Notes under the pieces: model-generated
Seen by the model: the letters and a program-made list of their open reading frames with translations, nothing else
Told to the model about the DNA's origin: nothing
Database searches by the model: none
Assembly (NCBI GenBank): GCA_902530535.1
Contig: CACAAP010000003.1
Span: forward strand, 721 to 64,720
DNA: 64,000 bases
From: an uncultured Candidatus Poseidoniales archaeon
GTDB lineage: Archaea; Thermoplasmatota; Poseidoniia; Poseidoniales; Thalassarchaeaceae
Reading direction: 5' to 3'
Part shown: positions 5,758-59,964 of the stretch, one piece after another
Layout: every line of letters begins with the position of its first letter
Position numbering within the stretch: the first letter of the stretch is position 1
Position numbers and translations under genes: made by a program

Positions 5758-7101
5758 GTGCCATCCGAGGGCATTGGCGGGCTGCTGAAAGCCCGAGTAG
5801 AGGACTTCCGGGTCGAGGAATCATCCAAGGTTCCCGCTTTTGACGAAAAGGGGAGGTTCACAGTCGCAAGGGTGACTATGACGAATTGGGAGACTAATCG
5901 GTACATCAGACGCATGGCGAGATCTTGCGGGATAAACAAGAACAGAATTTTCAGCTCCGGACTGAAGGATAAGAGGGCAATAACCACTCAGGTTTTGGTG
6001 ATAGACGCACCAAGGAAGAAGGTCGAGTCAGTACAGATACCAGATAGCACCATCGAGGTACTGGGGAGGACCCATCAGAAGGCAACCATGGGCGATCATG
6101 ATGGGAACCGATTCACAATTACCGTACGCGGTTGCTGCGATGAATCAGGAAATCCTATTGATGCCAAGGAGGCCATGCGCAGGGTCCACGAGATTAGAGA
6201 GGGCCTTTCCGAGGCCATAGGTTCAGATGCTTTCCCAAATTGGATCGGGCCTCAGCGCTTCGGTTCGGCCAGACCGGTTACACCTGAGGTAGGAAAGGCA
6301 GTAATCGAGGGGGACTTCGAAAGTGCGGTAGACCTCTACGTCGGCATGGAGGGTGCCCGAGAGGGCCAAGAGTCTGAGGACTTCAGATCTTCTTGGAGGA
6401 ATGAAAAGGACCCGGGAAAATCCCTCCAAATAGCCCCAGACAGGCTTGGATACGAGAAATCAATGCTGGAGCACCTTCTCAAGAAACCGGATGACTTTGT
6501 CGGCGCATTCAAGACCCTCCCCAACTCCTTGCAACTCTTGATGGTCCATTCAGCGCAGTCTCTCGCATTCAATCACTCCTTGTGTGGCAGGATGGAATCG
6601 GGAATGCCAATCATCGAACCTGTAGAGGGGGATTTGGTCGCACCGATTCTGTCTAACGGAAGGATTGACGTTGGCAAGATGGCCCGAGTCAGCAGTACGA
6701 ATCTTGAGAGGTGCCAACGAAACTGTGAACTCGGGAGGCTTGCAGTCACTGGTATCCTGCCTGGAAGTGATTCCAATCACGCCAGCTGTGAGCCCGGTGA
6801 TTTCGAAGTCCAAGGCATCGATGCTGCAGGTCTCTCTGATGTGGACTGGGTCGTGAAGGAGATCCCCCGGCTAACTACTTCAGGTACGAGGAGGGCACTT
6901 TCCGTCCCCTTCAGGGACTTGACCGTCGAGCAGGCACCCGATACAAACGACCTTTTCAATCGCTGGGAAGAAGGTCCACTCGAGGGCGATCGCTGGCATC
7001 CCGAAGGGGCTTCTCTCAGACTGAGATTCACCTTACCAGCAGGAGCATACGCAACCGTACTAATGCGTGAGTTCATGAGATCGCCACTCGACCACTACTG
7101 A
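5758..7101 (+). CDS. truD: tRNA pseudouridine(13) synthase TruD
   Basis: GLLKARVEDFRVEE near the N-terminus, GPQRFG catalytic-region motif, and C-terminal LRLRFTLPAGAYATVLMREF closely parallel E. coli TruD (GLLKANPEDFVVVE ... IRFWLPAGSFATSVVREL). Confidence 0.75.
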   Translation: MPSEGIGGLLKARVEDFRVEESSKVPAFDEKGRFTVARVTMTNWETNRYIRRMARSCGINKNRIFSSGLKDKRAITTQVLVIDAPRKKVESVQIPDSTIEVLGRTHQKATMGDHDGNRFTITVRGCCDESGNPIDAKEAMRRVHEIREGLSEAIGSDAFPNWIGPQRFGSARPVTPEVGKAVIEGDFESAVDLYVGMEGAREGQESEDFRSSWRNEKDPGKSLQIAPDRLGYEKSMLEHLLKKPDDFVGAFKTLPNSLQLLMVHSAQSLAFNHSLCGRMESGMPIIEPVEGDLVAPILSNGRIDVGKMARVSSTNLERCQRNCELGRLAVTGILPGSDSNHASCEPGDFEVQGIDAAGLSDVDWVVKEIPRLTTSGTRRALSVPFRDLTVEQAPDTNDLFNRWEEGPLEGDRWHPEGASLRLRFTLPAGAYATVLMREFMRSPLDHY

Positions 7102-7368
7102 TCAGAGGCGGCCCATTTCCAAGGCCTCGATTTGTCCCACTAGATCGTCGACCTGCTTGACCCTGTCTTCGAATCCGTCAACGATCCCCTCTCCTTCTCC
7201 CAGAACCGCCTGGACCTCTATATACATCATTCCGAATGCCAGTGGCTTGATCTCCACCTCTTGCACTTCTTCGAAGTCCGAGATTACGCTCGCTATCCCT
7301 TCGTAGTTCGGACCACCATCTTCAGGTTGGTCCAGAGTAACCTTGTACTTCACAACTACATGGCCCAT
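7102..7368 (-). CDS. ef1b: translation elongation factor aEF-1 beta
   Basis: About 89 aa from MGHVVVKYKV... with PLAFGMMYIEVQAVLGEGEG... and C-terminal ...EALEMGRL. Matches archaeal EF-1beta (MGDVVATIKV...PIAFGLVALNV...). The ORF-track start at 7377 is probably 9 nt too long. Confidence 0.7.
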   Translation of the reverse strand: MGHVVVKYKVTLDQPEDGGPNYEGIASVISDFEEVQEVEIKPLAFGMMYIEVQAVLGEGEGIVDGFEDRVKQVDDLVGQIEALEMGRL

Positions 7369-7636
7369 ATACATCACCTCAAGGCCCTACAAAATTGCAC
7401 TCAGGGCACATATACTTCACGGACTGAACCCTGCATTTCTGACTCCTCCCAAGAGGGGCCGAACATACCGGGCAGGGGAAAGAGGTGCTCTCGCTGCCCA
7501 CTAAGGGCGTCCCGGAGGACGCGCATACAGTTGCCCTTCCACTAGTCCCGGCCATTGACTTGCTGGCGTACTAGGGTCCCTTTTTAGCGTTGATTGTGGT
7601 AATCCAGTGACATCGGGGCATAGAATCTAGCCAAAA

Positions 7637-8128
7637 TTGCTGAAAATTGAAAAGATTGGACTAGTCGAGTTGAACATGGCCGAGGAAGAAATGAGCCTGA
7701 CTGGGGAGCAATCAGACCTATCAGATTACGTGAATGACGAAGGGGGCATTTGGAGTCTGAGGCAGGTAGAGAAGATCAGAGGTTGGAACAACATCGAGTA
7801 TGGGGCCGGACTCTCGGGAAAGAACACCCCTTCCACTGGGCTCTCTATGAACAGGGCATACATCCCGCCAGGAGGAATAGCGAAGGCACATATCCATGTT
7901 GACTTCGATGTCATGATATACCTCCTGAAGGGAAGTGTCAGGCACGAGTATGGGGAGGGCTGTCGCCAGTCCGTGGTACACAGTGCCGGGGACATGTTCT
8001 ACATCGAACCGGGCCTTCCTCACGAGGTGTTCAATTGCTCAGAAGACGAATGGGTGCATGCGATCGTTTCTAGGTCAGATGCATCTGAGTGGCAGAATAT
8101 CAAGCCATATGACAGAGACTCAGAGTAG
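7637..8128 (+). CDS. cupin-domain protein (start more likely ATG at 7676)
   Basis: GGIAKAHIHVDFDVMIYLLKGS...GDMFYIEPGLPHEV is a cupin_2 two-motif signature. Confidence 0.6.
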   Translation: MLKIEKIGLVELNMAEEEMSLTGEQSDLSDYVNDEGGIWSLRQVEKIRGWNNIEYGAGLSGKNTPSTGLSMNRAYIPPGGIAKAHIHVDFDVMIYLLKGSVRHEYGEGCRQSVVHSAGDMFYIEPGLPHEVFNCSEDEWVHAIVSRSDASEWQNIKPYDRDSE

Positions 8129-9996: not shown

Positions 9997-12900
9997 TTGG
10001 GGAAGGGGTCCGTGACTTCTGCGGATGGAAGACCTCAACAAGATGAAGAGCTTGTTTTCTGGTCTTGGTTCTTCGAAAGAATTAGTCCCTTCACCGATCG
10101 GTTATCGAGTCTAAGGAATGCCGTTGGAGATAGTCCCATTGGAGGTTTTATCGACACTGCGGGTCAGTTGATCAACGATATCTCGGATACCGCTCACATA
10201 GCGGCCCAGAGAGTAGTGGAGTTGACTTACAGTGCAATTCTCAGAAGTCCAGCATACCTGATAGTGACACTTCTATTGGCTTCTGCACTGATTGGATGGA
10301 GGGCCGAGGACTTCGAACACCAGATTAACGGGGATGTCGAGATTTATCTCCCCGACGGGGCCAACTCAACACTGTTGCTTAACGAGGTAAGGGAACAATG
10401 GGCCACGGACATAGTGATTCTTTACATTCAGACGAATAACGCAGCCATCGGTGCTAAGCATGGTGATGAAAACATCACAGATGCCGATATTTTGAACCAG
10501 ATTTCATGGATAGAAGGTGACGATAACAACGCCCAAGCTGGGGGATATGGGAGAGGTCTGGACTACAACAAGGAGGATCGTGGATCCTATTATTGTTCCA
10601 GCCCAATGAGCGGCTGTGATGGCGTTGTATGGATTTTATCCCCGGCCCAAATCGTGAAAGAGGCAAACTCCACCGACTATCGCTTCTCGTGCGCCGTGGA
10701 GAAGTACGGGCTACCAGGTTCAGATGGGGACTGTGATTTGGCTAGTCTGAATCCTAACGAGGGATACTCAATACCCCAAGGGGACGGAGCCCAGGATAGA
10801 ATCGATGGCTATGTCGAGAACTCCGGGGATCTGTTCTCAAACTTCGTCAGAGACACCAACAACGACGGGATATGGGATACTGGGGTGGTAATAATGGGGA
10901 TTTCATTCGATATGACCAACACCGACATCACCCCCAGGGCCGATCTCAAGACAGGTGAGGAGATCAGAGATCATAAGGCATTCATCGCGTATGTCAAAGC
11001 ACTTCTTTCCTCAGATCCAGCCAGAATCCACTGCGCTCTTTGCTTCGAAGTCTATGATGAAGTCTGGACAATGGACAAGGAGAGGTCGGACAAGATTCCT
11101 GAAAGGAGAGCAGTCACCGTCACGGGGCTAACGCCTGTCTTGCATGACGTTTCGGACGAGATATACAAGGCACTCAGGTACACTATGCTACCAGTCAGCC
11201 TAGTGCTCGTGGGCCTTACGATGTTCATTCTCCACAGGAGCTGGAAGGTAATCGTAATCTGCGGGACCCCGATAGCGATGAGCCTAGCCGTTACCTTCGG
11301 TTCCACCGTCATCTTCGACATCATGCTCACGCCCATGATCATCTCAGCAGGACCCATATTGGTGGGTCTCGGTGTGGACTATTCGTTGCACCTGACCAAT
11401 AGAATCGAGGAGAACAGGAAGGATATTCTGAAGGAGATGGAGGAGGAGGCATGGACATCGAAGAGAGACGGGGTAGAGGTCCCGGAGCCAGATCCTTTCG
11501 ACCCCCAGATTAGTCTGACTGCCAACGTCAGAGCAGCCATGACTACTGGAAACGCGATTTTCCTATCCGCATTGACTACAATAGTCGGTTTCAGCGTGCT
11601 TACCTGGCATAGTCTAGTCCCCATCGAACCAATGAGGACCGTTGGGAAGACCCTACTGATTGGCATCTCGACCACCTTCATCATCTCGATGCTAATGGTC
11701 CCTGCATGGATAGAACTCCTACGCTACAGGAAAGGGGACTCAGATGGCCTGCTTTCGAGCGGAGTGGTGGAGTCTGCTAGGAGGAAGAGGATCACGGCAA
11801 GGAGGGAGTCAAAGGAAAGAGAAACGCCTTGGATGAAGAGGGAGGAATCCGCCATAGATACCTCTGACGTTTTCGGCACAATCCTTGGGATTAACAGCAT
11901 ATTCTTCTATCTAGCTTCCACATTAATCTTCACCGGTACTCTGTTCCTCATCACCGATCTAACAAGATTGGATCTATCCCCATCAAACCTCTTGATCCTG
12001 GGTTTCACCCTTTCGACAACCCTGACCTTCTCACTACTAGATGAGTTCTGGGAGTCTGTGGGCAAGGTCCCCCTCAAGGCCACTGTTTTGGTGATCCTCA
12101 TTTCCACGGCGGCCACAGTGTGGGGCGGTATGATGTTCAAGGAGCAGTTGGGGAAGGACATCACCGGATCTTCTGACGAGGTCCCCCCTAATCTCGAGTC
12201 TTATGAAGCACTAAGGGAGTACAGCATCGTTTTCGAGGGCGGTCAGACTAACATGTTCATCGTTGACGCCACTGAATACGTAACCGAGAACGACACGGCC
12301 CCAATCAGAGATCTGCCAATCCTAGATTCGATTGAGAGGATGCAGACCATCAGGATCGACAACGTGGAGAATACAACAACCATCAGTCTCGTGAATATAC
12401 TCAAGGCAATACATGTAGACGTACAGATCGGAAATCTCGAACTATACGATCAGAGCCTCTGGGACCTAATCCATGACGAGTGTTGGGACGAGTCCACCAA
12501 CCCACTCCGTCCAGATTGCTGGCCCTACACAGTAAGCAGTAGAGAGGACATGGTGAACATCGCATTCGACACCCTGAGCCCCGAAATTAGATCGATGCTG
12601 ATGAACTCAGACGACGGCGATGGTGAGACTAAGACCCTAGTCTATGTCAACCAACCATACATCAATCTCGCAGTAGCAGGAGGCCTAAGGGACACTATCG
12701 ACGGCCACCTAGACGAGGGTGGATGCTCCGATGCACTGAGATGCAACGCTCTTGGCATACAGGGGGTCTACAACTCTCTACTAACGGGCGGTCTCCCGGT
12801 TTCCCTGGACATTAACGACGGGATTCACGAGGCCCAGTCAAAGACAACTATTGCCACGATGCTGATACTGCTACTCGTAATGGCCATACTATTCAGATCC

Positions 12901-14515: not shown

Positions 14516-14592
14516 GGGTCTGTAGCTTAGTCAGGTAGAGCACCCGGCTCTTAACCGGGCGGTCGCGGGTTCGAACCCCGTCAGACCCGCCA
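14516..14592 (+). tRNA. tRNA-Lys (anticodon CUU), genomically encoded CCA
   Basis: Cloverleaf by hand. Acceptor GGGUCUG/CAGACCC, D arm GCUU..GAGC, anticodon stem CCCGG/CCGGG with loop CUCUUAA (anticodon CUU), T arm GCGGG-UUCGAAC-CCCGU, discriminator G, then CCA. Confidence 0.85.
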
Positions 14593-15984
14593 ATGTATAT
14601 GCCGAGCAATCGAGGATTCATAACCGATGGTCTGAGACGGACGATTGGCGACGCTATGGGGAAAGAGTACTGGATTGGAGATGTTAGGGCTGGCTCCCAT
14701 GATGCCAAAGAGGTGGTTCTCAAGGGGTGGGTCCACAGGACCCGGGGCTCCAACAAGATTCGGTTCATCGTTGTTCGAGACTCTACAGGCCACGTCCAAT
14801 GCGTGGCGAAGAGGGACGTAGTAGGTGACGAGTGCTTCGAATCTCTCAGGAACGCTCTAATCGAATCTAGTGTCGAGGTAACAGGTGTGGTAGAGCCAAC
14901 TGATCGAGAGCACGGCCATGAGGTCCAGGTTACTTCAGCCACTGTGGTCGGTCCCGTGAACCCCGATCGCCCCTTCCCTATCACCGAATCAGCGATGGAG
15001 GACTCGGATGGCGGTGAGACCGAGTTCCTACTGGACAACAGGCACCTCTACCTTCGAACGAGCCGAATGACGACCATGCTGAAGATTAGAAGCACCGTAT
15101 TCGGGGCAATCCACTCATACTTCCGTGACAGAGACTTCACTGAGTACCAGGCCCCAAACTTCGTTGCAGGGGCCGTGGAAGGTGGAAGTACACTGTTCGA
15201 AGTCCCATACTTCGGCAAGAAGGCATACCTCACCCAGTCTTGGCAGCTCTATGCAGAGGCAGCGATGCCGGCCCTAGAGCGACTGTACACGATGGCCCCC
15301 TCATTCCGAGCAGAGAAGAGCAGGACAAGGAGGCACCTAACAGAGTTCTGGCATGCTGAGATGGAGATAGCATGGGCTTCCAATGACGAGGTGATGGAAC
15401 ACGGGGAAGGAGTGGTGCGACACGTCGCGAGTACCCTACTCGAACAGAGATCAGAGGAACTCGAGGAATTGGGCCGAGATTTGTCCATGGTAGCCAGATT
15501 CGCGGAAAGCGAGTACCCCAGGATGCGCTATGACGAGGCCATTGAGACACTTCAGTCGAAGGGAGTAGAGGTCGAGTGGGGTCAGGACTTGGACTACTCC
15601 AAAGAGAAGATTCTAACCTCTGACTTCGAGGTCCCCCACTTCCTCACTCACTACCCGAGGGTGGCCAAGCCATTCTATCACCGTCCCGATCCTGAAGAAC
15701 CGAAATACGTCCTATGTCACGACCTTCTGGCTCCCGAGGGCTATGGCGAGATAATAGGAGGGGGAGAGAGGACATGGTCCGAGGAGGAAATACTCGAGAG
15801 AATTGACGAGGAGGGAACCCCTCGTGAGCCGTACGAATTCTACATCGATATCCGGAGATACGGAGGAGTCCCCCACGGAGGCTTCGGATTAGGGGTTGAC
15901 AGGCTATGCACCTGGCTTTCTGGTGCTGAGCACATCAGAGAGGCCATCCCGTTCCCAAGGGATAGCAGAAGGGTCACTCCATAG
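14593..15984 (+). CDS. asnS: class IIb aminoacyl-tRNA synthetase, most likely asparagine--tRNA ligase (a non-discriminating AspRS is not excluded)
   Basis: Motif 2 FRAEKSRTRRHLTEFWHAEMEIAW (AsnRS-like FRAExSxTRRHLxEFWMxEPE). Motif 3 GGGER...RRYGGVPHGGFGLGVDRL. N-terminal OB fold. The C-terminal FPRDSRRVTP is AspRS-like, hence the ambiguity. Start is ATG 14593 or 14599, directly abutting the tRNA-Lys 3' end. Confidence 0.6.
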   Translation: MYMPSNRGFITDGLRRTIGDAMGKEYWIGDVRAGSHDAKEVVLKGWVHRTRGSNKIRFIVVRDSTGHVQCVAKRDVVGDECFESLRNALIESSVEVTGVVEPTDREHGHEVQVTSATVVGPVNPDRPFPITESAMEDSDGGETEFLLDNRHLYLRTSRMTTMLKIRSTVFGAIHSYFRDRDFTEYQAPNFVAGAVEGGSTLFEVPYFGKKAYLTQSWQLYAEAAMPALERLYTMAPSFRAEKSRTRRHLTEFWHAEMEIAWASNDEVMEHGEGVVRHVASTLLEQRSEELEELGRDLSMVARFAESEYPRMRYDEAIETLQSKGVEVEWGQDLDYSKEKILTSDFEVPHFLTHYPRVAKPFYHRPDPEEPKYVLCHDLLAPEGYGEIIGGGERTWSEEEILERIDEEGTPREPYEFYIDIRRYGGVPHGGFGLGVDRLCTWLSGAEHIREAIPFPRDSRRVTP

Positions 15985-15995
15985 GAAGTGGTAGT

Positions 15996-16397
15996 ATGGA
16001 CTCAGAGCAGACGCGACCCCTCACTAGGCTGGTAGCGCTCTCAGCGATAACAGCCAGCCTCTGCTGCCTACCCTCAGTCGTTTGGGTCATGCTCGCGGGT
16101 TCCTCAGCCATAGTCGCAGCGGATCAGCTCTCGAACGACCTCTACTACTCGTGGGTCCGATATGCTCTATACATGGTATCACTCTCCATGCTCTCCTACG
16201 GCCTAGTAGTTTACTTCCGCAATAGGGGAGTTTGCACCCTGGACGACGTAAAGAGGGAGAAGAGGAGGGTGATCAACACAACCCTGGCAGTTTTTACAGC
16301 CGCCATTCTTACTTACCTGATTTGGAACTTCGTCATTCTGGAGGTCGTCGGGATAGCCATCGGGCTTCCTTGGGAGGACTCTGCCTTCTGGAACTAG
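15996..16397 (+). CDS. small membrane protein (about 4 TM), hypothetical
   Basis: 133-aa ORF with four hydrophobic helices. No family recognised. Confidence 0.4.
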   Translation: MDSEQTRPLTRLVALSAITASLCCLPSVVWVMLAGSSAIVAADQLSNDLYYSWVRYALYMVSLSMLSYGLVVYFRNRGVCTLDDVKREKRRVINTTLAVFTAAILTYLIWNFVILEVVGIAIGLPWEDSAFWN

Positions 16398-16412: not shown

Positions 16413-17661
16413 ATGTCTCTTACGACGACCACCCCTACCAGCGTTATGCCCGAGAGTTGGCGAGACATGGATATCGCAAATCCCACCGAGGAACACTCGA
16501 TGCTGAGGGAGATGGTTCGAAACTTTGTCAGAGAAAGAGTAGAGCCCCAGGCCCTCGAGAGCGACAGAGAAGAGAGATTCAATTTGGAACTATTCAGAGA
16601 AATGGGGTCGATGGGGCTCCTAGGGTTAACCGCCCCCCCCTGATTACGGTGGCGCGGGGATGGATGCGACATCTGTAGCGATTGTCAACGAGGAATTATC
16701 CTATTCCGACCCGGGCCTATGCCTCGCATTTCTAGCACATGACCAACTTTTCGTGAACAACCTAGTTCATAGCGGAAGTGAATCTCAGAAGGAGCGGATA
16801 CTCCCAAAGGTCTGCAGTGGCGAGTGGGTAGGATGCCTGGGAATGAGTGAACCAAACCAAGGCACGGACGTACTTGGCATGGAAACATCTGCCAAACAAT
16901 CCGACGACGGGTCTTGGATTATCAATGGCAGGAAGATGTGGATAACAAACGGCATCATTGACGAGGAGGGTACTCCGGCAGACATCGTCTGGCTTTATGC
17001 TAGGACCGGTACTGATGAAAGAGGCAGGGCAGAAATAACCACTTTCCTGGTCGAGAACGGAATGGAGGGGTACTCCGCAGGACAAAAGATAGAGGATAAG
17101 CTGGGTATGAGGGCGAGCACCACAGCCGAGTTGGTTTTCGAGAACTGTGTCGTGCCGAGCGAGAATATCATCGGAATGCCAGGCGAGTCGAAAATCCACC
17201 TTATGAGGAACCTTGAGCATGAGAGGGTAGCATTGGCTGCAATGAGTGTCGGAATCGCCAGGAGATGCCTAGCAGACATGAACTCATACGCTAGCGAAAG
17301 GGAGGCATTCGGAAAACAAATCAGAAATTTCGGCCAGATCCAGAGACATATCGGTGAATCTTGGGCTGATTACAGGGCAATGCGGGCATATGTATACGAT
17401 ACAGCGAGACAAATCGATCTCTCAAAAGCGGGCCAGAGGCTGGACTCGGACGGTGTGAAACTCTTCGCCACAACTGCCGCCAAGAATATAGCAGACAAGG
17501 CAATTCAGGTAATGGGCGGATATGGCTACGTCGGAGAGTATGTAGTCGAGCGTCTTTGGAGGGACGCGAAGCTACTGGAAATAGGAGGAGGGACCATCGA
17601 GAGTCACCAGAAGAACATCACAAAGGACCTTTCAATTGATTCCTCCGTAATAAATCGGTAA
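16413..17661 (+). pseudogene. acyl-CoA dehydrogenase interrupted by a +1 frameshift in a C8 homopolymer (pseudogene or sequencing error)
   Basis: ORF 16413-16643 is the ACAD N-terminus (..ELFREMGSMGLLGLTAPP*). ORF 16660-17661 carries the rest (SEPNQGTDV, WITNG, ...IYEGT-like C-terminus). Deleting one C from cccccccc at 16633-16640 gives a continuous LTAPPDYGGAGMDATS, the canonical PxxYGGxGxD. Confidence 0.75.
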
Positions 17662-18063
17662 TCAGTCGACATCCTCGATTATCTGCATCTTAAGATCCCC
17701 ATTGGAGGCGGAGTATTCCACTGATTTGATGGCGACTTTCACTTCTCTTCCATCAAACGGGTCGATGATATTGGGTTGACCGCTCCTGAATACTGAAATT
17801 AGCTCATTGTACTCAGAAACCGAAGCAGTGCACAGGACATCGTAGACTGCAGACTCTGAACCCTCATCCAGCAAGTCGTCTCCCTCGCCACCCCTAATGA
17901 CAGTTCTTTGTATCCTTCTTTCTATTTTTATCGTAATTTCCTTACACGGAAGGATTAATTCGACATCTTTTGCTTTCTTTGGTTTGAGAATTGAACCCCC
18001 TTCCTCGAACACCTTACCAATCATTGTCAGGCTAAGGGGCCTGACCAACCTATCCTCGCTCAT
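17662..18063 (-). CDS. hypothetical cytoplasmic protein (133 aa), first gene of the low-GC island
   Basis: Intact ORF, about 45% GC. No family recognised. Confidence 0.4.
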   Translation of the reverse strand: MSEDRLVRPLSLTMIGKVFEEGGSILKPKKAKDVELILPCKEITIKIERRIQRTVIRGGEGDDLLDEGSESAVYDVLCTASVSEYNELISVFRSGQPNIIDPFDGREVKVAIKSVEYSASNGDLKMQIIEDVD

Positions 18064-18100
18064 GATATTCGTTTAGGGTCTCATTTAATCAACATTGCAG

Positions 18101-18883
18101 TTATGGTTCAGAAACCATTGTTGCTGTTGGTTTGAATTGATGTACAGAAATCAGGATCGTAATTTCCTCTGAGTCGTCTGCAGGGCCGAACCCGCCGTAT
18201 GAGTTTACGTCAAGGTTGATTTGCACAGAAATCACTCCGCTACCCCATCCCTCTACCGTCCAAGGTGAAAGGGCTTGGTACTCATTAACAGCCGTTTGGT
18301 TGAAGCTCTGATGTTGGTAGTAGTTTGGATATGTGACTATCCTCAAGTAAATCGGTTCGCAGTCACTATCCGAACCCGAGAGCGTATTCCCCGAGTCAAA
18401 CCACTGTCCGGTCAAAGTCGAATTATCCCCCAGAAGCGTAGCACCTATGGAGTCACACTCCCACTCCCCCCCGTCAGAAATCCAAATTCCGTTCTCACAT
18501 CTACCTTCACTGCCTGCTCTTCCATTGCATTCTTCTGGAATAACCTTCACGTCTATGTAGCCGACAAAATAACCATCATCCACCGATATTTCGTCTAAAA
18601 AGAAGTCGATCACTTTGACGTCACCGTCTGCCCATATGTCATCAAACTCGAACGTGAGGTTATCCCCATTATCGTCCACAACATTGTTTTCGAACGTAAT
18701 ATTCCAACTCTTTTCGGTCTTGACGTAGTCTACTAAGTCAGTCTGATTTAGAACCAAGTCAGCCGAGGTATAAGAGAAAATAAGCGCGGTTGCTAAGATG
18801 CAAGGCAAATACGCTGCCTTAGTCCCATTATCTTTGAATAAATTTGAGATTATTGCACCAAAAGAACCGTCGAAATCACTCAT
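18101..18883 (-). CDS. hypothetical secreted/membrane-anchored protein (260 aa) with N-terminal signal anchor and Cys-containing beta-rich ectodomain
   Basis: N-terminal hydrophobic segment AAYLPCILATALIFSYTSA. Rest is Asn/Asp/Gly-rich with 4 Cys (CNGRAGSEGRCENG...WECDS). Low GC. Confidence 0.45.
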   Translation of the reverse strand: MSDFDGSFGAIISNLFKDNGTKAAYLPCILATALIFSYTSADLVLNQTDLVDYVKTEKSWNITFENNVVDDNGDNLTFEFDDIWADGDVKVIDFFLDEISVDDGYFVGYIDVKVIPEECNGRAGSEGRCENGIWISDGGEWECDSIGATLLGDNSTLTGQWFDSGNTLSGSDSDCEPIYLRIVTYPNYYQHQSFNQTAVNEYQALSPWTVEGWGSGVISVQINLDVNSYGGFGPADDSEEITILISVHQFKPTATMVSEP

Positions 18884-18891
18884 CTTATCAC

Positions 18892-20226
18892 CTAAATCAC
18901 CGCAGAATAAAGGGCACAGATAATTAGGCTAAAGAAAACTACACTAGCAATGCTCGCACTCATTATATCATAATCCCTATCATCTATTTTTGGTATAACT
19001 AACTCGTCCATCCCAATTAACTTCTTCGACACTGTATCTCCCTCTCTCATGAGATTAGTCATTATCCGTTCCTCCCAGCCAATGAAAATCGCTACCACCA
19101 TGGCCAGAGCTGCCGATGAGATCATCTCCGGAACTGGAAGAAATGATTGTAGGAGTTCAATAACGCTGGAGGATACAATCAACAACATCAAGATTACCAT
19201 TATTCTTGTTAGCCATCGATTTTCCGATGCATCGGAGTTAATAATGTCGAAATTTAGTAGTATGTACATAAAAATAAGAGGTGTGAACAAGTAGATCAGA
19301 GTCTCAGATGTGAAATCGTACCATATCTCAAACGCCGCAGGAAAACTTTCACATTCAGTTTCCACACAACTCCTGACTATGTCCATAATCGCGTAGTCTA
19401 CAATTCCGGCAGTGAATCCAACAATTCCGACAAGGTACACGATTATTGAGAATCCACTAATCCCGGTATGATAGGTCCTCCAACTTTCGAAAAACAGCAA
19501 TATCAGTATCGTGCTCGCACCCATGGAAAGTACCAAATTTGTACCCAGCCATCCAAATGTAGATGGTTCCCAGAGACTCCATTCAACCGCAAATCTAGCG
19601 AGAAAGTCGTTGTTTATCGAAATAACCTGTGCCAACCAGTACGTCATTTGTTCCCCTAACATCGCGATTAGTAGTAATCCCGCAACCAAAGACATCCTCC
19701 TGTGAGAATTTTCCCCAGTTTCAATCTCCATCAAAAGGAAGCGGATGTAGACCAGAACGAGAATCATCATTCCAGGAATCATCAAAAACCACTCTCCATC
19801 ACTGTGCCTGTAATTTGTGAGTATGGATATAGTACTAAGGACGATTGATAGTACACATATCATAGCAGTTACTACCTTAATATTCCATTTTCTTTGGAGA
19901 ATTGGGTACGGGTAAATGAATGGAAGGAAAACCAGCAAGAGAATAGATATGGTCTTGCAAGTCCTTTGGGCGAATCTGAAGAATGAATCCTGTAAATTAT
20001 TGCTAGAATCAATTATCCACAATCCTTCATTAGCGACGATTGCTTCCATAACAGACGTGAAAGTGTATTCTAGCCCTTTCAAAACCAGAATCCATCCAAT
20101 TAGCAAACCCGCAAATTTCTCCACCCATTCCTTTTCGCCAGATCTTCTGACGAGAGCTATGGTAACAAAACCGAGAATCAAATCAACTATCGCGGCAACA
20201 GGGACAAGTGACTGACCCTCTGCCAT
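18892..20226 (-). CDS. hypothetical polytopic membrane protein (444 aa, about 10-12 TM), low-GC
   Basis: Very hydrophobic, about 35-38% GC, ends 8 nt upstream of the previous gene. No family recognised by eye. Confidence 0.5.
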   Translation of the reverse strand: MAEGQSLVPVAAIVDLILGFVTIALVRRSGEKEWVEKFAGLLIGWILVLKGLEYTFTSVMEAIVANEGLWIIDSSNNLQDSFFRFAQRTCKTISILLLVFLPFIYPYPILQRKWNIKVVTAMICVLSIVLSTISILTNYRHSDGEWFLMIPGMMILVLVYIRFLLMEIETGENSHRRMSLVAGLLLIAMLGEQMTYWLAQVISINNDFLARFAVEWSLWEPSTFGWLGTNLVLSMGASTILILLFFESWRTYHTGISGFSIIVYLVGIVGFTAGIVDYAIMDIVRSCVETECESFPAAFEIWYDFTSETLIYLFTPLIFMYILLNFDIINSDASENRWLTRIMVILMLLIVSSSVIELLQSFLPVPEMISSAALAMVVAIFIGWEERIMTNLMREGDTVSKKLIGMDELVIPKIDDRDYDIMSASIASVVFFSLIICALYSAVI

Positions 20227-20367
20227 ATTCTTTCTGGAACACCATTTTTTTTCAAGTCTATGTCGATGATTCTGGGAAATTGCGCCTTTCCAGGTATGCT
20301 AAGAACTCCGAGAAATCACCGGTATTTGCCCAGTATGCAATACAATTTCAAATATCTTACAATTTTT

Positions 20368-20443
20368 TGGTAGTCCCGCCCGGATTCGAACCAGGGTCCC
20401 CGGGACCAAAACCCGAGATGATGGACCACTACACTACGGGACT
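20368..20443 (-). tRNA. tRNA-Gln (anticodon UUG), genomically encoded CCA
   Basis: Minus-strand sequence AGUCCCGUAGUGUAGUGGUCCAUCAUCUCGGGUUUUGGUCCCGGGGACCCUGGUUCGAAUCCGGGCGGGACUACCA. Acceptor AGUCCCG/CGGGACU, anticodon stem UCGGG/CCCGG, loop UUUUGGU (anticodon UUG), T loop UUCGAAU. Resembles archaeal tRNA-Gln. Confidence 0.85.
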
Positions 20444-51558: not shown

Positions 51559-52485
51559 ATGCCAAGGTTCCCCATTCTCCTTACCAATGACGACGGCATT
51601 CACTCCCCCGGACTTCAGCATCTGGCATCGTCATTGCACTCTCTTGGACACCCGATAGCCATACTAGCACCTCTTACAGAGCAATCAGCGGTAGGGATGA
51701 AGCTCACTCTAAGAGATGACATGGCCTTCGAAGAGCACACTGATATCACTGAAAAAATCAGGACCGACGAGGCAGTTCCCCTGCGCGTGTTCTCGCTCGA
51801 TGGGTCTCCCTGCGACTGCGTCATCGTTGCTATCGATGGGGGGTTGAGGTCCTGGGCACCAGAGATACGGCCGTGGCTCTGCATTTCCGGCATCAACCGA
51901 GGGCCAAACCTCTCTGTGGACGTTCTTCACTCCGGAACGGTTTCCGCTGCTCGCGAGGCATCTCTATATGGCCTGCCATCTCTTTCCGTAAGCCTAGCCA
52001 CATACTCTCACCAAGACTACTCGCAATCCATAGAGGCAACCCTGGCTCTGGTGGAAAGACTATCCGAACTGGTCACAGTAGAACCGAGCAACATCCTGAG
52101 GCCAGCGGGTTCGAGGACAAGGCCGATTGAGGGAACCGGTCCACACTCTCTTAGATCATGGTTCATGCAGGGGAACATGTTCCTGAACCTAAACATCCCT
52201 GAAAATTGGAACGGCACATTCCAGACCGTGCCCCTAGGTGCTAGATGGTACCACAACGCGACTGACATGATAGATCAGAAATCCATGGGGGTGGCCTTTG
52301 AGGTCGGGGCAGCCAGAATCGTCGACGAGGAAATTGAAATGACTGACTGCCATGCAATCGCGTCCGGGAGCGCATCGATTACCCCTTTGGCAAGCTGGCC
52401 CCAGAATCACCCGCTCGGAGTCCCGCAATCGATTATGGAAGCGTCTACGGTGATGGATGCTGATGGGATGCCTTCATGGATCTAG
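51559..52485 (+). CDS. surE: 5'/3'-nucleotidase SurE
   Basis: N-terminal ILLTNDDGIHSPGL (SurE NDDG metal-binding motif) and SGINRGPNL. Confidence 0.85.
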   Translation: MPRFPILLTNDDGIHSPGLQHLASSLHSLGHPIAILAPLTEQSAVGMKLTLRDDMAFEEHTDITEKIRTDEAVPLRVFSLDGSPCDCVIVAIDGGLRSWAPEIRPWLCISGINRGPNLSVDVLHSGTVSAAREASLYGLPSLSVSLATYSHQDYSQSIEATLALVERLSELVTVEPSNILRPAGSRTRPIEGTGPHSLRSWFMQGNMFLNLNIPENWNGTFQTVPLGARWYHNATDMIDQKSMGVAFEVGAARIVDEEIEMTDCHAIASGSASITPLASWPQNHPLGVPQSIMEASTVMDADGMPSWI

Positions 52486-53099
52486 GACTCGTCAAGGAGA
52501 TGATGGATTATGGAGATGCAGGAGTGCCCCTGCAACCACTCTCTTCCCAGCGAGAGTGAATATAAACTGCGAACACTGGCCTTGTCATGATCCGAAAGGG
52601 GCTGATCATCCGATAGAATGAACCCTAGGTCATTGGGATGTTGTATCGAATTGAAATCTCTCCCTTCAGCATCTAGCAATACTGGGATAACCCCTCTTTC
52701 CTCCCAATCCTGGAGGGTCTGGTTGATATCCCCTCCAGAGTGCAGTATCCCACTTGAGAACTCTTTGAATCGATCCCTCGGAGGAATCGGAAGCTTGTTT
52801 ATTCCCTTAATCTGCCCAGCAATTGATCTTTCATCCGGCCTTAATCCCCCTATTCTGGTACCATCGAACCATATCCTCCTATTCGGACCTCCTCCTCCCA
52901 TCAGGTGAAGAATCACATGGCAATAATCGCGAATTCCATGTGAGACAAACAGGGCAGCATTTACCGCTCTAACAAGGACGTCCATCCTGCCTCCAGAACC
53001 AGGAAGGTCATTCAGATTAAGCGGCCCTTCGCTTGGAGCCCTATGGCCGATTATAGCGAACCATCTCTCCAGAAGATCACCCCAGATCGATCTCTTCAT
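52482..53099 (-). CDS. trmY: tRNA (pseudouridine54-N1)-methyltransferase TrmY (SPOUT, DUF358)
   Basis: NLNDLPGSGGRMDVLVRAVNAALFVSHGIRD ... WFDGTRIGGLRPDERSIAGQI parallels haloarchaeal TrmY ([27 protein letters not shown]...FDGSTLRGLHPDERNVAARI). Confidence 0.65.
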   Translation of the reverse strand: MKRSIWGDLLERWFAIIGHRAPSEGPLNLNDLPGSGGRMDVLVRAVNAALFVSHGIRDYCHVILHLMGGGGPNRRIWFDGTRIGGLRPDERSIAGQIKGINKLPIPPRDRFKEFSSGILHSGGDINQTLQDWEERGVIPVLLDAEGRDFNSIQHPNDLGFILSDDQPLSDHDKASVRSLYSLSLGREWLQGHSCISIIHHLLDES

Positions 53100-54432
53100 C
53101 GAGCCCCATCATGGACTCCATCTGGCGTCTCATCTTCCTATCTCCTCTGAATCCACGCATCATCTTCTTGCTCCTATTCCATTGAGTAATGAGTTCCTTG
53201 ACCTCTCTTTCCTCACATCCAGAACCTCTGGCGATCCTCCTAATTCTACTCGACTTCAGGAGCAGGGGGTCGTCCTTCTCCTCTTGGGTCATCGAGTCCA
53301 TAACTATCCTGTACTTATCCAGGTTAGACTGCATCTGCTTCTTCTGAGCCACTCCCATATTGCCCATTCCTCCGAACATAGCGTCTGGGAGGTGTGATAG
53401 GACCTTGTCAAGAGTTCCAATTTTGCTCATCATCTCCATCTGCGCATACATGTCGGTGAGAGTGAATCTCCCTGACATCAACCTCTTTGTCAGGCGCATT
53501 GCCTCCTGCTCGTCTAGGTCCTCGGGGGCTAGGTCGATGAGGCCCTTGATGTCACCCATTCCAAGAAGCCTGGAAATGAACCGATCAGACTCGAATTTCT
53601 CTATATCACCAATCCTCTCCCCCTCTCCCACGAAGACGATCGGCGCACCTGTCGTAGAAACCGCGCTTAACGCCCCCCCTCCTCTAGCAGTTCCATCTAA
53701 CTTGGTCACGATTGTCCCAGTAACTCCTACCAACTCATGAAAGGTCTCGGCCATAGGCCCGGCAGCCTGCCCGACTTGAGCGTCAATTACCAGAAAGCGC
53801 TCTGAAGCGTTCGCAATACTTGCAATCTCCAGTAGTTCTTCCTTAAGCTCCCCATCTAGGCTGTCCCTGCCGGCGGTGTCTATGATCACGATGTCTGCGG
53901 TTCCAACCTTGCTGAGGCCATTTCTAACTATCTGGGATGCAACCTTTTCTCCAGGCTCTCCGTATACCTCTATGCCAGTACCCTCGAGCATCTGACTGAG
54001 TTGTTCGAACGCTCCTGGCCTATGCACGTCCGCTTCGATAACTGCAACCTTTGCTCCGTGCGCTTTTCTCCACCAGTCTGCCAATTTTGCGGTGGTGGTT
54101 GTCTTTCCCTGACCATAGAGGCCTACCATAAGCACTGTTTGGTTGTGTGGCTTGATCTCCCTAGGCGGTCCAAGAATCCTTACTAGTTCAGAATATATGA
54201 GGTTCATAGCATGAGTTTCGAGCTTCACTCCCGGTCGCGACTCCTCTTCCAAAATCCCCCTTTCTACCCTTTCAGTCAGCTCCTTTGCCTGTCTGACATT
54301 GAAATCTGCTTCTAGTAGGGCCCTCCTGAGTGACTTGCTAAGATCCTTGACGGTGTCCTGATCGACTTTCCTCTTTCCCTTCAGGAGCCCTATTGATCCT
54401 AGAACTCTACGCTTGAATCCCTCCAGAGCCAT
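53077..54432 (-). CDS. srp54: signal recognition particle protein SRP54
   Basis: GLYGQGKTTTTAKLA (G1), DTAGR (G3), TKLDG (G4), Met-rich M-domain at the C-terminus. 451 aa. Confidence 0.9.
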   Translation of the reverse strand: MALEGFKRRVLGSIGLLKGKRKVDQDTVKDLSKSLRRALLEADFNVRQAKELTERVERGILEEESRPGVKLETHAMNLIYSELVRILGPPREIKPHNQTVLMVGLYGQGKTTTTAKLADWWRKAHGAKVAVIEADVHRPGAFEQLSQMLEGTGIEVYGEPGEKVASQIVRNGLSKVGTADIVIIDTAGRDSLDGELKEELLEIASIANASERFLVIDAQVGQAAGPMAETFHELVGVTGTIVTKLDGTARGGGALSAVSTTGAPIVFVGEGERIGDIEKFESDRFISRLLGMGDIKGLIDLAPEDLDEQEAMRLTKRLMSGRFTLTDMYAQMEMMSKIGTLDKVLSHLPDAMFGGMGNMGVAQKKQMQSNLDKYRIVMDSMTQEEKDDPLLLKSSRIRRIARGSGCEEREVKELITQWNRSKKMMRGFRGDRKMRRQMESMMGLDEEIDLG

Positions 54433-54535
54433 ATTGTCCGGCTACAATCGTGCCGTTTGAACGTTATCTGGTTATTCGAGCCATTTGACGCTTACTTATC
54501 CGCTGTACTGAAAGGGTGCGCGTCATGGGAAGTGT

Positions 54536-55327
54536 GTGGCTGACGCTCCTATTGAGATGTGGGAGATGCAACTGGCTTTTGCAATAGGATTGCTGGGCAT
54601 CTACGTAGGCTGGAGGGGAACTATAGCCAGGATGACGGGTTTCTATGACCTATCTGGTGCTGCAAAGTCATTGTTATTTGGAATTGTCTCAGGAGTGCTT
54701 GCCGCTTCAGCAATCGACGCACTAATTCTAGCCGAAGTTAGGAATCAATCTCAGAACATCATCTCACTTAGCTCGATAGCTTTCATGATAGCTCTGGCTG
54801 AATCGTCTTTCGTACTTTTTCTGCTCGGTAGAACTAGAACTGTTGGATTGAGGGCTTGCGCCCCTTACGGATGGACTCTAGGTTTGGGTTTCGGTGCAAT
54901 GCGCTCAGCCCACCTCAACGTACGTCTATTCGATCCAGTAGTCTGGGAAGGTACCGGATTCAGTGCTCAGAACATCGCTCTAGCGTGTTTACTGACAATT
55001 ACTACCTGCCTAGCGCATGCATCCATAGGTACTTGGCAAGGGTCTAGAATTCTGGATAATCAAAGATTTCGACCTCTTGTATACGCCTCATTCGCTAGGA
55101 TGGTAGTTATTCTAGTGACGGTGCTTTCTGTCTTCTTCCCATTGACCATCGCTCTCTTGGCCCCATTCGTCGTTTGGTCTTGGTTTCCAGCCCAGGAGTC
55201 TTGGCTGCCGTCTGGTATGACTCCAGCAGCCAGACAGGCATACAGGCGCACACTTCGGCAATCCGTCGTCAACCGGTCTCGAGCACAAACCAGAATTAGG
55301 GGAGAAACCGTGGAATCAGAAGAATAG
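54536..55327 (+). CDS. hypothetical integral membrane protein (about 7 TM)
   Basis: 263-aa hydrophobic ORF. No confident family. Confidence 0.4.
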   Translation: MADAPIEMWEMQLAFAIGLLGIYVGWRGTIARMTGFYDLSGAAKSLLFGIVSGVLAASAIDALILAEVRNQSQNIISLSSIAFMIALAESSFVLFLLGRTRTVGLRACAPYGWTLGLGFGAMRSAHLNVRLFDPVVWEGTGFSAQNIALACLLTITTCLAHASIGTWQGSRILDNQRFRPLVYASFARMVVILVTVLSVFFPLTIALLAPFVVWSWFPAQESWLPSGMTPAARQAYRRTLRQSVVNRSRAQTRIRGETVESEE

Positions 55328-55404
55328 TTCCGTTCTAGGACACTTTAGGCCTTTTTCCACATATGGCGCAGGATTATATCCAGTCCGCATATTCATTTGT
55401 TTGA

Positions 55405-56829
55405 ATGCGAGTGATTATCGCAGGTGCCGGCGAGGTCGGCCGGGGTGTTGCCGCAGCGCTTCGAGGCGAGAAGCGAGGAGTTGCGATGATCGATCCCGAC
55501 CCCAATGCAATTAGCGACTCCCAATCTCTAGATTGCTTGCTGATAACGGGCAACGCCCTATCAAGGGACTCTCTAGTAAGAGCTGGAATCAATGATGCTG
55601 AGATCATCGTCTTCGCAACCAATGATGACAATGTCAACATCTTAGGATGCGCTTTCGCCAAGAGGGTGTTCAGCGAACAGGTGGGCGACAGAACTGCTTC
55701 CGGGCTGATCACTATCGCCAATGTACGTGACTCAGAGATAACTCACCCTTCGAGGGGTGCCGGACCGTTGGAGAATTGGGCTCGTACAAACTTTGTTGTT
55801 TCACCTTCGACAGATGTTGTAGAACAACTAATCTCCGGATTAGTATCCCCTACCCTTTCTGATATCATCCCAATGGGTGATAACGCTTGGATTGTCGAGT
55901 CTGCTGTATCAGTTGGCTCTCCTATGGTTGGCTCAACAATCGAAGATGCCAATTCGAGCTCCACAAAAGATCCGGATTATCCCCGAATCATAGCAATGAA
56001 AGCGGGTAGCAGGAAGGGGCGAATAGTTTCAGGAAATGAAATAATCCAACAGGGGGACATGTTGGTCTTTGTTACAGGTTCAACCAAATTCTTCGGTGAG
56101 ATTGCCCGATTGGTCGGGGATGAGAATTCTGAGATGCCGGATAAGCCGACTGTGGCAATTTTCGGAGCAACCAACTTCGGTAGCAAACTAGCGGAGCACT
56201 ACCTCAATATGGGCTCGAACGTAGTAATCATTGAACCCGATCTAGACTCAGCTAACGCAATAGTTGGATCCCGCATTGGTGTCAATAAGAGGTTGGACGT
56301 GATACACGGTGATCCTCAGGACGAGGATCTTCTACGCGAACTCGCAGTGGAAGATCACGATATTGCAATCTCTACTCTCAGTGATGATAATCTGAATATT
56401 TCGATAGCTATGAGGACATTCGACAAAGGCGTTTCCAGAACTGGCTTAATTCTCAAGGATAGGGCCCTAGTAGAGGCAATTCAGCGTATTGGACTAAGGC
56501 CGGTGAGTAAGCGCAGAGTGGCAATAAAGTCGATTCTCAAAGCCATCCACATGCATGTCCCAGGACTATACGAGCCAATTCCCAGAATCCCATCTTTGGT
56601 ATCTATGTCTGCTGAGATAAATGCCGGAAACGGACTACTAGGGAAGGAATTGCCAGAAGTAGAGGACATAATTGGGGCTAACCTAGTTATGCTGGAGAGG
56701 CTAGATAATGATGGAACATTCAACAACATAATCGAGGAAAACATCGGAACCATCCAAGAAGGTGACAGGCTCTACTTGATTCTTGAGATAGATGATGTAG
56801 GCAAGGCCGAGGAGATATTGCGGAGCTAG
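55405..56829 (+). CDS. trkA: Trk potassium uptake system NAD-binding subunit TrkA (two TrkA-N/TrkA-C pairs)
   Basis: MRVIIAGAGEVGRGVA and a second VAIFGATNFGSKLA Rossmann motif. 474 aa. Confidence 0.85.
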   Translation: MRVIIAGAGEVGRGVAAALRGEKRGVAMIDPDPNAISDSQSLDCLLITGNALSRDSLVRAGINDAEIIVFATNDDNVNILGCAFAKRVFSEQVGDRTASGLITIANVRDSEITHPSRGAGPLENWARTNFVVSPSTDVVEQLISGLVSPTLSDIIPMGDNAWIVESAVSVGSPMVGSTIEDANSSSTKDPDYPRIIAMKAGSRKGRIVSGNEIIQQGDMLVFVTGSTKFFGEIARLVGDENSEMPDKPTVAIFGATNFGSKLAEHYLNMGSNVVIIEPDLDSANAIVGSRIGVNKRLDVIHGDPQDEDLLRELAVEDHDIAISTLSDDNLNISIAMRTFDKGVSRTGLILKDRALVEAIQRIGLRPVSKRRVAIKSILKAIHMHVPGLYEPIPRIPSLVSMSAEINAGNGLLGKELPEVEDIIGANLVMLERLDNDGTFNNIIEENIGTIQEGDRLYLILEIDDVGKAEEILRS

Positions 56830-56830
56830 T

Positions 56831-59928: not shown

Positions 59929-59964
59929 GAGAGAAAATTCGCGCGGCGACTCTTGAAGATTAGC

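Follow-up and report, generated by a model that had tools for sequence, protein, structure and literature searches.

We analysed a 64,000-nucleotide stretch of contig CACAAP010000003.1 (hereafter the window) from an uncultured Candidatus Poseidoniales archaeon of the Thalassarchaeaceae, in which three tightly packed minus-strand open reading frames (ORFs), designated A1, A2 and A3, lie beside a tRNA-Gln gene. A1 (18892-20226, minus strand; 444 aa) is the first gene of a two-gene cassette and belongs to subfamily A of the subfamilies described below, and A2 (18101-18883, minus strand; 260 aa) is the second, starting after a gap of 8 nt. A3 (17662-18063, minus strand; 133 aa) follows after a further 37 nt and forms the right boundary of the cassette site. 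The conserved left boundary is the tRNA-Gln(UUG) gene (ttg; 20368-20443), located with ARAGORN. Because this gene is carried on the minus strand, like the cassette, A1-A3 occupy its 3′ side. The 141-nt spacer between the A1 start and tRNA-Gln (20227-20367, minus strand) includes the junction (~20320-20345) of an insertion/deletion (indel) relative to the related locus L013, and an A-rich box ~22 nt upstream of the A1 ATG may be an archaeal promoter.

A1, A2 and A3 are the sole genes between two plus-strand flanking genes, both identified by Pfam and synteny. The conserved outer left flank, outside the module, is a giant S8 subtilase (PF00082; 20530-26496) with a C-terminal transmembrane (TM) anchor. 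The conserved outer right flank is an acyl-CoA dehydrogenase (ACAD; 16413-17661), which is convergent with A3 such that the stop codons of the two genes abut. An earlier, sequence-only reading of this DNA had described three tightly packed minus-strand genes of 133, 260 and 444 aa on the 3′ side of tRNA-Gln(UUG), with which the ORFs and ARAGORN agree, and had proposed that they form an acquired genomic island.

Distribution and pairing of A1 and A2

No description of the A1, A2 or A3 families was found in the literature searched. Comparison of all three proteins with Pfam, NCBIfam, PHROGs and PADLOC returned sub-threshold noise only (eS8, RavZ, DUF6064, holin, Tox-MPTase3), and sequence-profile searches of the PDB gave nothing significant (MJ0480 at E = 0.32, over a TM segment only; L24 at E = 1.1), in agreement with the sequence-only reading, which had recognised no family. 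A Pfam search of ten distant A1 relatives likewise identified no domain. No relatives were detected in the viral contigs (A1, A3) and phage genomes (A2, A3) searched, including by tblastn for A3, which leaves a virus-borne origin without sequence support.

Word-based searches recovered 101, 8 and 140 homologue clusters for A1, A2 and A3, respectively. Their source names were nearly all Poseidoniales, Thalassarchaeaceae, ‘Euryarchaeota’ or Thermoplasmatota, and the exceptions look mis-binned. A profile built from the A1 alignment retrieved just 98 clusters from 1.84 billion representatives, with members that were either full-length (415-460 aa) or fragments, and the named members of the ten distant A1 clusters were all from Poseidoniales. 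Scanning one genome per GTDB species yielded 79 loci, all in Poseidoniales metagenome-assembled genomes (MAGs) or single-amplified genomes (SAGs) with the exception of two contigs. These two (L079, CALDQY010000024.1; L083, NZEQ01000056.1) carry typical Poseidoniales cassettes in MAGs labelled Rhodobiaceae and Verrucomicrobiales, and one A3 homologue (P0115) is labelled Actinobacteria; all three labels are probably binning errors in public MAGs. As judged from these searches, the A1, A2 and A3 families are endemic to Poseidoniales (Marine Group II), and this confinement provides no pointer to a donor outside the lineage. They are orphan, order-specific families with nothing recognisably housekeeping about them.

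In each of the 79 species-level loci, from genomes of 36 to 60% GC, A2 lies directly downstream of A1 and shares its strand. The pairwise identities of A1 and A2 were correlated (r = 0.90), and the nearest neighbour of A2 was found in a cassette of the same A1 type in 84/86 cases. Together, these comparisons mark A1-A2 as an obligate, co-evolving two-gene cassette at the level of sequence. Clustering of 92 full-length A1 proteins resolved at least five subfamilies (A, A′, B, D and E) plus a singleton, F. Several cassette subfamilies were carried by single MAGs, with several copies per genome. A tRNA gene (Gln, Ala or Leu) was present within 400 nt of the cassette block in 25/79 species loci, compared to an expectation of ~1% derived from the tRNA density in distant flanks.

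The tRNA-Gln site and its base composition

Related loci (given L numbers) were searched with A1, A2 and A3 profiles, the flanking proteins of the window and ARAGORN. A shared gene order, S8 (minus), tRNA-Gln (plus), cassette(s), A3, ACAD (minus), MerT-like gene, class II aminoacyl-tRNA synthetase (aaRS), tRNA-Lys, RpiA and MMPL, was present in the window and in more than 20 loci (including L006, L011, L013, L016, L020, L050-54 and L058-71), whose ACAD proteins were 85-96% identical to that of the window. tRNA-Gln occupied the same position in L006, L011, L013, L020, L050-53 and L058-71. Low-GC lineages (L001, L021, L023, L026, L027) displayed a variant order, namely S8, A1, A2, tRNA-Gln, HD and ACAD.

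The slot between tRNA-Gln and A3 held zero, one or two cassettes. A single A cassette was found in the window, L011 and L016; B followed by A in L006, L013, L015 and L020; B followed by A′ in L050; A′ followed by B in L052 and L053; A′ alone in L051 and L054; and B alone in L058-L071. In L009 and L092-L097 the slot was empty, giving the order 3HCDH, tRNA-Gln, A3, ACAD. The shared gene order indicates that the position of the cassette is ancestral; between the conserved flanks, cassettes have been gained, lost, reordered and replaced.

The closest long relative of the window, L013 (SAG AG-422-I20; A1 95% identical), was collinear with it at 87-89% nucleotide identity in two blastn blocks (window 26103-20346 with L013 7-5761; window 20319-12001 with L013 7908-16228). 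The 2,146 bp of additional sequence in L013 (5762-7907) corresponded to exactly one B cassette, starting 22 nt past tRNA-Gln, where the window has 26 nt (20320-20345). No copy of a B-type cassette was found elsewhere in the 64-kb window, which has one A-type cassette and is without the B-type cassette of its closest relative. Replacement was apparent in L058 and L065, whose ACAD, A3 and S8 proteins are 98-99% identical and whose nucleotide flanks are 91-98% identical; the drop in nucleotide identity, to 60-79%, coincides exactly with the stretch that begins with A1 and ends with A2. L006 and L050 had S8 and the B cassette in common at 91-98%, whilst their second cassettes differed (A versus A′) and their A3 proteins were 76% identical.

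Additional tRNA genes accompanied some cassettes. A second, partly decayed copy of tRNA-Gln was located between the cassettes of L050 (5570-5644), L052 (~10110-10185) and L053 (9381-9455). In L035 the cassette lies between two tRNA-Ala genes (7682-7755 and 10116-10191), in L038 (8001-12437) two convergent cassettes surround one tRNA-Ala, and in L080 and L083 a tRNA-Leu pair is found upstream of E-type cassettes. Such whole extra tRNAs, flanking or separating cassettes, suggest that a unit of tRNA plus cassette has been duplicated or mobilised. Between its B and A cassettes, L006 encodes a predicted secreted protein of 312 aa that has no Pfam match (6830-7768; also in L007 and L008), and L050 has its tRNA-Gln copy where L006 has this protein.

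At the tRNA-Gln locus, A3 followed the last cassette regardless of subfamily, and it was also found after a B cassette in an unrelated context in a 36%-GC lineage (L004, L056, L057, L060, L061, L064, L067). In three lineages A3 was present beside tRNA-Gln with no cassette, and most cassettes (A in Poseidoniaceae, D, E and F) had no A3 nearby. On its distribution, composition and conservation, we treat A3 as a conserved backbone gene, apparently confined to a single locus, which lies outside the cassette at the edge of the hot spot.

The A1-A3 region represents the 2.8 kb of lowest GC in the window (0.43, z = -2.2), with gene values of 0.455 (A3), 0.450 (A2) and 0.413 (A1) against a window mean of 0.543. 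The sequence-only reading had put the GC of these genes at about 35-45%; low GC was borne out, whereas the lower bound was not, with 400-nt windows across the region reaching a minimum of 0.395. The GC-normalised tetranucleotide signature of the region ranked 16th of 154 windows, and was therefore no extreme outlier, the most deviant stretch being 54-57 kb. GC at third codon positions (GC3) was 0.51, 0.48 and 0.45 for A3, A2 and A1, respectively, compared to 0.56-0.69 in adjacent genes. In GC-rich Thalassarchaeaceae, cassette GC3 was 0.44-0.57 and backbone GC3 0.55-0.68, with the MerT-like membrane gene of the same loci at 0.50-0.71, whilst in low-GC lineages (backbone GC3 0.21-0.28) cassette GC3 was equal or slightly higher. 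The mean cassette GC3 deficit across 32 loci was 0.08, compared to a mean difference of 0.009 for A3, which tracks the backbone on average. Hence, the three-gene low-GC unit described earlier holds for A1-A2 and not for A3, which in addition occurs without a cassette.

The GC dip is a conserved, standing property of the cassettes in GC-rich Thalassarchaeaceae. As the cassettes of relatives share it, it is no mark of recent arrival in the window genome. The low GC at first and second codon positions of A1 (GC1 0.43, GC2 0.36; hydrophobic fraction 0.53) is explained by amino-acid composition, and the GC3 deficit is not. Plausible causes of the latter are a flow of cassettes between lineages of differing GC and/or weaker GC-biased gene conversion, proposed because a hypervariable region may be too divergent for frequent recombination.

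Several features were observed in the surrounding genes. ACAD, a single ORF of ~415 aa in relatives, is split in the window into ORFs of 76 and 333 aa by a one-base insertion (+1 frameshift) in a C8 run (near 16633-16640), which is either a real pseudogene or a homopolymer sequencing/assembly error. The adjacent gene (15996-16397) encodes a 133-aa membrane protein with a CC motif and a weak match to MerT (E = 0.0024, below the Pfam cut-off), and is kept beside ACAD in Thalassarchaeaceae relatives with the same synteny. Beyond it lie tRNA-Lys (14516-14592) and the class II aaRS (Asp/Asn/Lys type), listed as an ORF at 14593-15984 that starts one base after the tRNA; its true start is probably near 14656, because the proteins of relatives start at MGK(D/E)(F/Y)WIGD. 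On the other side of the locus are three giant ORFs in a row (27410-47639; 1241, 1784 and 3644 aa), with an extremely acidic composition (D+E 22-31%, K+R 1-2%) and GC3 values (0.70-0.79) that no other part of the window reaches. The first contains PPC and TSP3 repeats, and all three probably encode giant surface or adhesion proteins.

Predicted products of A1, A2 and A3

The AlphaFold2 (AF2) model of A1 is all-helical with ~12 TM helices (predicted local distance difference test, pLDDT, 79.6; predicted template modelling score, pTM, 0.82), consistent with the polytopic protein of the sequence-only reading. Invariant residues in the alignment include Y160, R162, E167, R176, R211, E247, R250, C287, C292, R341, E357 and Q360, and near-invariant motifs are YxRF...E, GExWR, SCxETxCE and FIGWEE(R/K)I; no His is invariant. 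Under the positive-inside rule, YxRF..E, GExWR and FIGWEERI would be cytoplasmic and the short SCxETxCE loop would face outward, where C287 and C292 probably form a disulfide. The most conserved stretch of A1 (~330-400; window ~19027-19237) runs from the TM10-TM11 hairpin through FIGWEERI, and is also where AF2 confidence is lowest in the TM region (pLDDT 60-68). Both features would suit a segment that packs onto a second A1 subunit or onto a partner, for example the A2 anchor.

A Foldseek search of the PDB with the A1 model gave no match at E ≤ 0.001 (best E = 0.15). The matches were GPCR-like seven-helix bundles only (E ≥ 0.15, template modelling score, TM-score, ~0.3, root-mean-square deviation, RMSD, ~9 Å) and were rejected as generic helix bundles. 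Known families of similar architecture were also considered. A1 resembles exosortases/archaeosortases and O-antigen ligases/Wzy in being polytopic, of similar size and encoded beside a secreted or anchored protein. The sequence-only reading had named a sortase-like enzyme as a possibility, and exosortase/archaeosortase and O-antigen-ligase-like families as search targets. These ideas found no support. A1 had no Pfam or NCBIfam match to exosortases/archaeosortases at E ≤ 1, the lack of an invariant His means that the Cys-Arg-His triad is absent, and the invariant Cys residues are instead in a predicted extracellular loop. For O-antigen ligase/Wzy, no profile match was found at E ≤ 1, and none in distant family members. 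CPBP/CAAX proteases carry the motifs EExxxR, FxxxH and HxxxN; the EER of FIGWEERI does not fit these and, again, no His is invariant.

In A2, a single TM helix separates a short N-terminus, probably cytoplasmic, from an acidic and probably beta-rich ectodomain (D+E 20%, K+R 3%) with strand-like periodicity. The earlier description of an anchored, Cys-containing protein agrees with the single N-terminal TM anchor and the four ectodomain Cys of the window protein. Most members have two Cys, and one Cys pair is invariant. N-glycosylation sequons were enriched in A2 (observed/expected 1.62), as in the secreted S8 protease (2.4), compared to ≤0.95 in cytoplasmic proteins. In close relatives of the window, divergence was also faster for A2 than for A1 (A1 94% with A2 80%; A1 79% with A2 59%), which fits an exposed subunit. 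From these features, A2 would be the outward-facing, disulfide-bonded and exposed partner.

A3 is an acidic protein of 133 aa that is predicted to be cytoplasmic. Its AF2 model (pLDDT 80.4) comprises a strand, a very long hairpin (31-56, 63-79), a helix (82-94) and three further strands, and the hairpin contains a 30-residue motif, IERRIQRTVIRGGEGDDLLDEGxESAVY, that is nearly invariant across the order. Eight PDB structures matched the model at E ≤ 1e-3 in Foldseek (best E = 1.7e-4, probability ~1). The 50 best matches were dominated by phage, gene transfer agent (GTA), tailocin and extracellular contractile injection system (eCIS) tail components (tube, tube-initiator/baseplate, neck and Dit). 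This included the baseplate/tube-initiator chains of the Photorhabdus virulence cassette (PVC) and antifeeding prophage (AFP), the GTA neck, Mu and Milano baseplates, monocin and diffocin tubes, the lambda tail tip and SPP1 Dit. In BFVD there were 62 matches at E ≤ 1e-3 (TM-score up to 0.60), some of them annotated as tail tube, TP901-1 major tail or DNA-circulation N-terminal proteins. Among the top matches listed from the two databases, those with a description were tail components of phages, GTAs, tailocins or eCIS. Faint matches to ribosomal protein eS8 and to KOW proteins were set aside, A3 being acidic and lineage-specific.

The predicted fold of A3 thus matches the phage tail-tube/Hcp-like type. 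With that superfamily, which takes in tail tube proteins, Hcp, tube initiators, the Dit N-domain, the lambda tail tip and the tubes of eCIS, GTAs and tailocins, A3 has in common a predicted beta-sandwich with a long hairpin and one flanking helix in ~130 aa. It differs in standing alone as a cellular gene, with neither sheath nor baseplate, capsid or terminase in its vicinity, and in being kept across an archaeal order at one backbone locus with no detectable sequence similarity to tail-tube proteins. Moreover, the hairpins of tube proteins are expected to vary, whereas the hairpin is the most conserved part of A3. On the basis of the model, A3 may be a domesticated tube-family protein, possibly forming a ring.

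Cassette exchange, alternative explanations and significance

Taking the locus as a whole, we favour the reading that A1-A2 is a Poseidoniales cassette at a tRNA-Gln exchange hot spot, that its products would form an envelope complex, and that A3 is a backbone gene with a predicted tube fold; we put its probability at roughly two in three. Our best guess for the complex is a heteromer that would be built on A1 in the membrane, with the fast-evolving A2 as its exposed subunit. Its role may be that of a receptor, a binding module or a mark of surface identity, diversified by selection such as that imposed by viruses. The hot spot is the interval from tRNA-Gln to the following backbone gene, in which cassettes are duplicated, lost, reordered and replaced. 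Under this reading, exchange would proceed by homologous recombination through the S8/tRNA-Gln and A3/ACAD flanks with no integrase, and selection on the exposed part would maintain cassette diversity.

The closest known parallel is provided by the flexible genomic islands of marine prokaryotes, as defined for Alteromonas. Additive flexible islands are tRNA-linked cassette hot spots with tRNA repeats after the inserts and carry unrelated cargo, whereas replacement flexible islands are loci for exposed surface structures, such as glycosylation clusters (PMC4898812). The site described here is likewise fixed between core flanks (>20 loci), adjoins a tRNA and has a GC content below that of the core. 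Cassette number and order vary, with tRNA repeats in some genomes, and divergent versions occur between near-identical flanks, as in L058 and L065. The products may also be cell-exposed, as the TM anchor, Cys pair and sequons of A2 suggest. The site differs in that all cassettes are paralogues of one lineage-specific two-gene module, in lacking any integrase, integron or mobile-element gene, in its uncultured archaeal host, and in that some genomes repeat whole tRNA copies and not 3′ fragments. What is new here is a flexible island with a single endemic two-gene module as its cargo, together with a cellular protein of predicted tail-tube fold.

A number of observations weigh against this interpretation. 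Topology, sequons and co-evolution are the grounds for proposing that A2 is exposed and forms a complex with A1. The tail-tube assignment of A3 found no counterpart in sequence searches (Pfam, PHROG, PDB sequences, or tblastn of phage genomes and viral contigs), the fold comes from one predicted model with moderate scores (TM-score 0.4-0.6, RMSD 4-9 Å), and there is no other tail gene near A3, whose neighbours are metabolic. In comparison with L013, the A cassette of the window is as conserved as the backbone (A1 95%, A2 93%; ACAD 95%), so that allele replacement is shown in relatives and not in the window genome. Finally, the genes at 52-62 kb (52482-61683) have a GC3 of 0.45-0.50, as low as that of the cassette, meaning that low GC3 is not unique to it, and the GC3 deficit has no single proven cause.

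An unlikely alternative is that A1-A2 moves solutes, as a transporter or permease whose partner subunit is accessory or captures substrate, the paralogues differing in substrate. The ~12 TM helices in ~440 aa, the invariant charged or polar residues (R162, E167, R176, R211, E247, R250, R341, E357 and Q360), the very conserved TM10-TM11 hairpin and the presence of several A1 paralogues per genome would all suit a carrier, and genes in the neighbourhood point to the use of peptides and lipids (S8 protease, ACAD, 3HCDH, OPT transporter). However, A1 showed no similarity to transporter families in Pfam, NCBIfam or the PDB, nor an internal repeat of the kind typical for many 12-TM carriers (hhalign of the N-terminal against the C-terminal half, probability 0.3%). 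In addition, most of its conserved charges are predicted at cytoplasmic helix ends, and exposed structures are the more typical setting for alleles that are replaced between near-identical genomes (PMC4898812).

It is less probable still that A1, A2 and A3 constitute one three-component machine, in which a cytoplasmic A3 ring docks on the inner face of A1 with A2 pointing outward. The shared strand, the 37-nt gap between A2 and A3, and the occurrence of A3 directly after the last cassette of any subfamily, as well as after the B cassette in an unrelated context, would be expected of such a system. The predicted cytoplasmic location of the most conserved A1 motifs (YxRF..E, GExWR, FIGWEERI) would offer a docking face, and in the L006/L050 mosaic A3 has changed along with the neighbouring cassette. 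Set against these are the three lineages in which A3 stands beside tRNA-Gln with no cassette, the majority of cassettes with no nearby A3, the single A3 locus versus several cassettes per genome, and the backbone-like GC3 and conservation of A3. The bolder form of this idea, that A1-A2 is a new class of archaeal envelope machine, with several interchangeable versions per cell serving for surface identity or as a virus or ligand receptor, and that A3 is a domesticated tail-tube protein whose cytoplasmic ring couples to the conserved inner face of A1, we regard as improbable; if true, the tRNA-Gln locus would be an exchange site for a three-part system with no known counterpart.

A further possibility is that low GC is simply a by-product of amino-acid usage (a hydrophobic A1 and an ectodomain rich in Asn, Asp and Ile) in an ordinary, stably inherited operon. 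The GC1, GC2 and hydrophobic fraction of A1 agree with this, as does the proximity of cassette GC3 to that of the host in low-GC and very high-GC relatives. GC3 depends little on amino acids, however, and in ~20 GC-rich relatives that of A1 falls short of the backbone by 0.10-0.20, as does that of the non-membrane A2. Furthermore, the neighbouring MerT-like membrane gene has a high GC3, and cassette number, order and alleles change between genomes with flanks that are 91-99% identical, making this explanation very improbable.

A classical genomic island, inserted by an integrase into tRNA-Gln from an outside donor, can be largely dismissed: the region is the lowest in GC of the window, on the 3′ side of a tRNA, at a site that varies among relatives and has duplicated tRNA-Gln copies beside cassettes in L050, L052 and L053, yet the families are confined to Poseidoniales, many relatives, with identities as low as 33%, carry the same genes at this position, no homologues were found in the viral contigs and phage genomes searched, the tetranucleotide signature is unexceptional, and neither an integrase nor an att repeat was found in the window. 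The sequence-only reading had itself seen no integrase and no attR by eye. Pfam, NCBIfam and PHROGs assigned no gene between S8 and ACAD to an integrase family. The window has a single occurrence of the 25-nt tRNA-Gln 3′ end (≤3 mismatches), and no relevant direct repeat bounds the region within 16.5-21.5 kb; the flanking genes encode the S8 protease, 3HCDH, ACAD and aaRS. The observation of the sequence-only reading was right, and it rightly sensed a variable tRNA-linked site (0-2 cassettes, replaced alleles). The newly acquired foreign island was wrong, the same genes occurring at the same position, with a similar cassette GC dip, in many Thalassarchaeaceae, an outcome that this reading had itself named as grounds for refutation.

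Within the archaeal plankton of surface oceans, Marine Group II ranks with the most abundant groups (PMC6461757). These archaea are uncultured, and most of their lineage-specific genes lack an assigned role. The present locus shows that a GC dip beside a tRNA is insufficient to call foreign DNA, the dip here being a feature of an endemic cassette family. In A3, a viral structural fold may have taken on a cellular role. A1-A2 is an order-wide, multi-copy and obligate membrane module, the cargo of a hypervariable tRNA-linked site. In marine bacteria, alleles that differ sharply between near-identical genomes mark virus-targeted surface structures (PMC4898812). By analogy with this pattern, A1-A2 is a candidate receptor or surface-identity determinant of Marine Group II.

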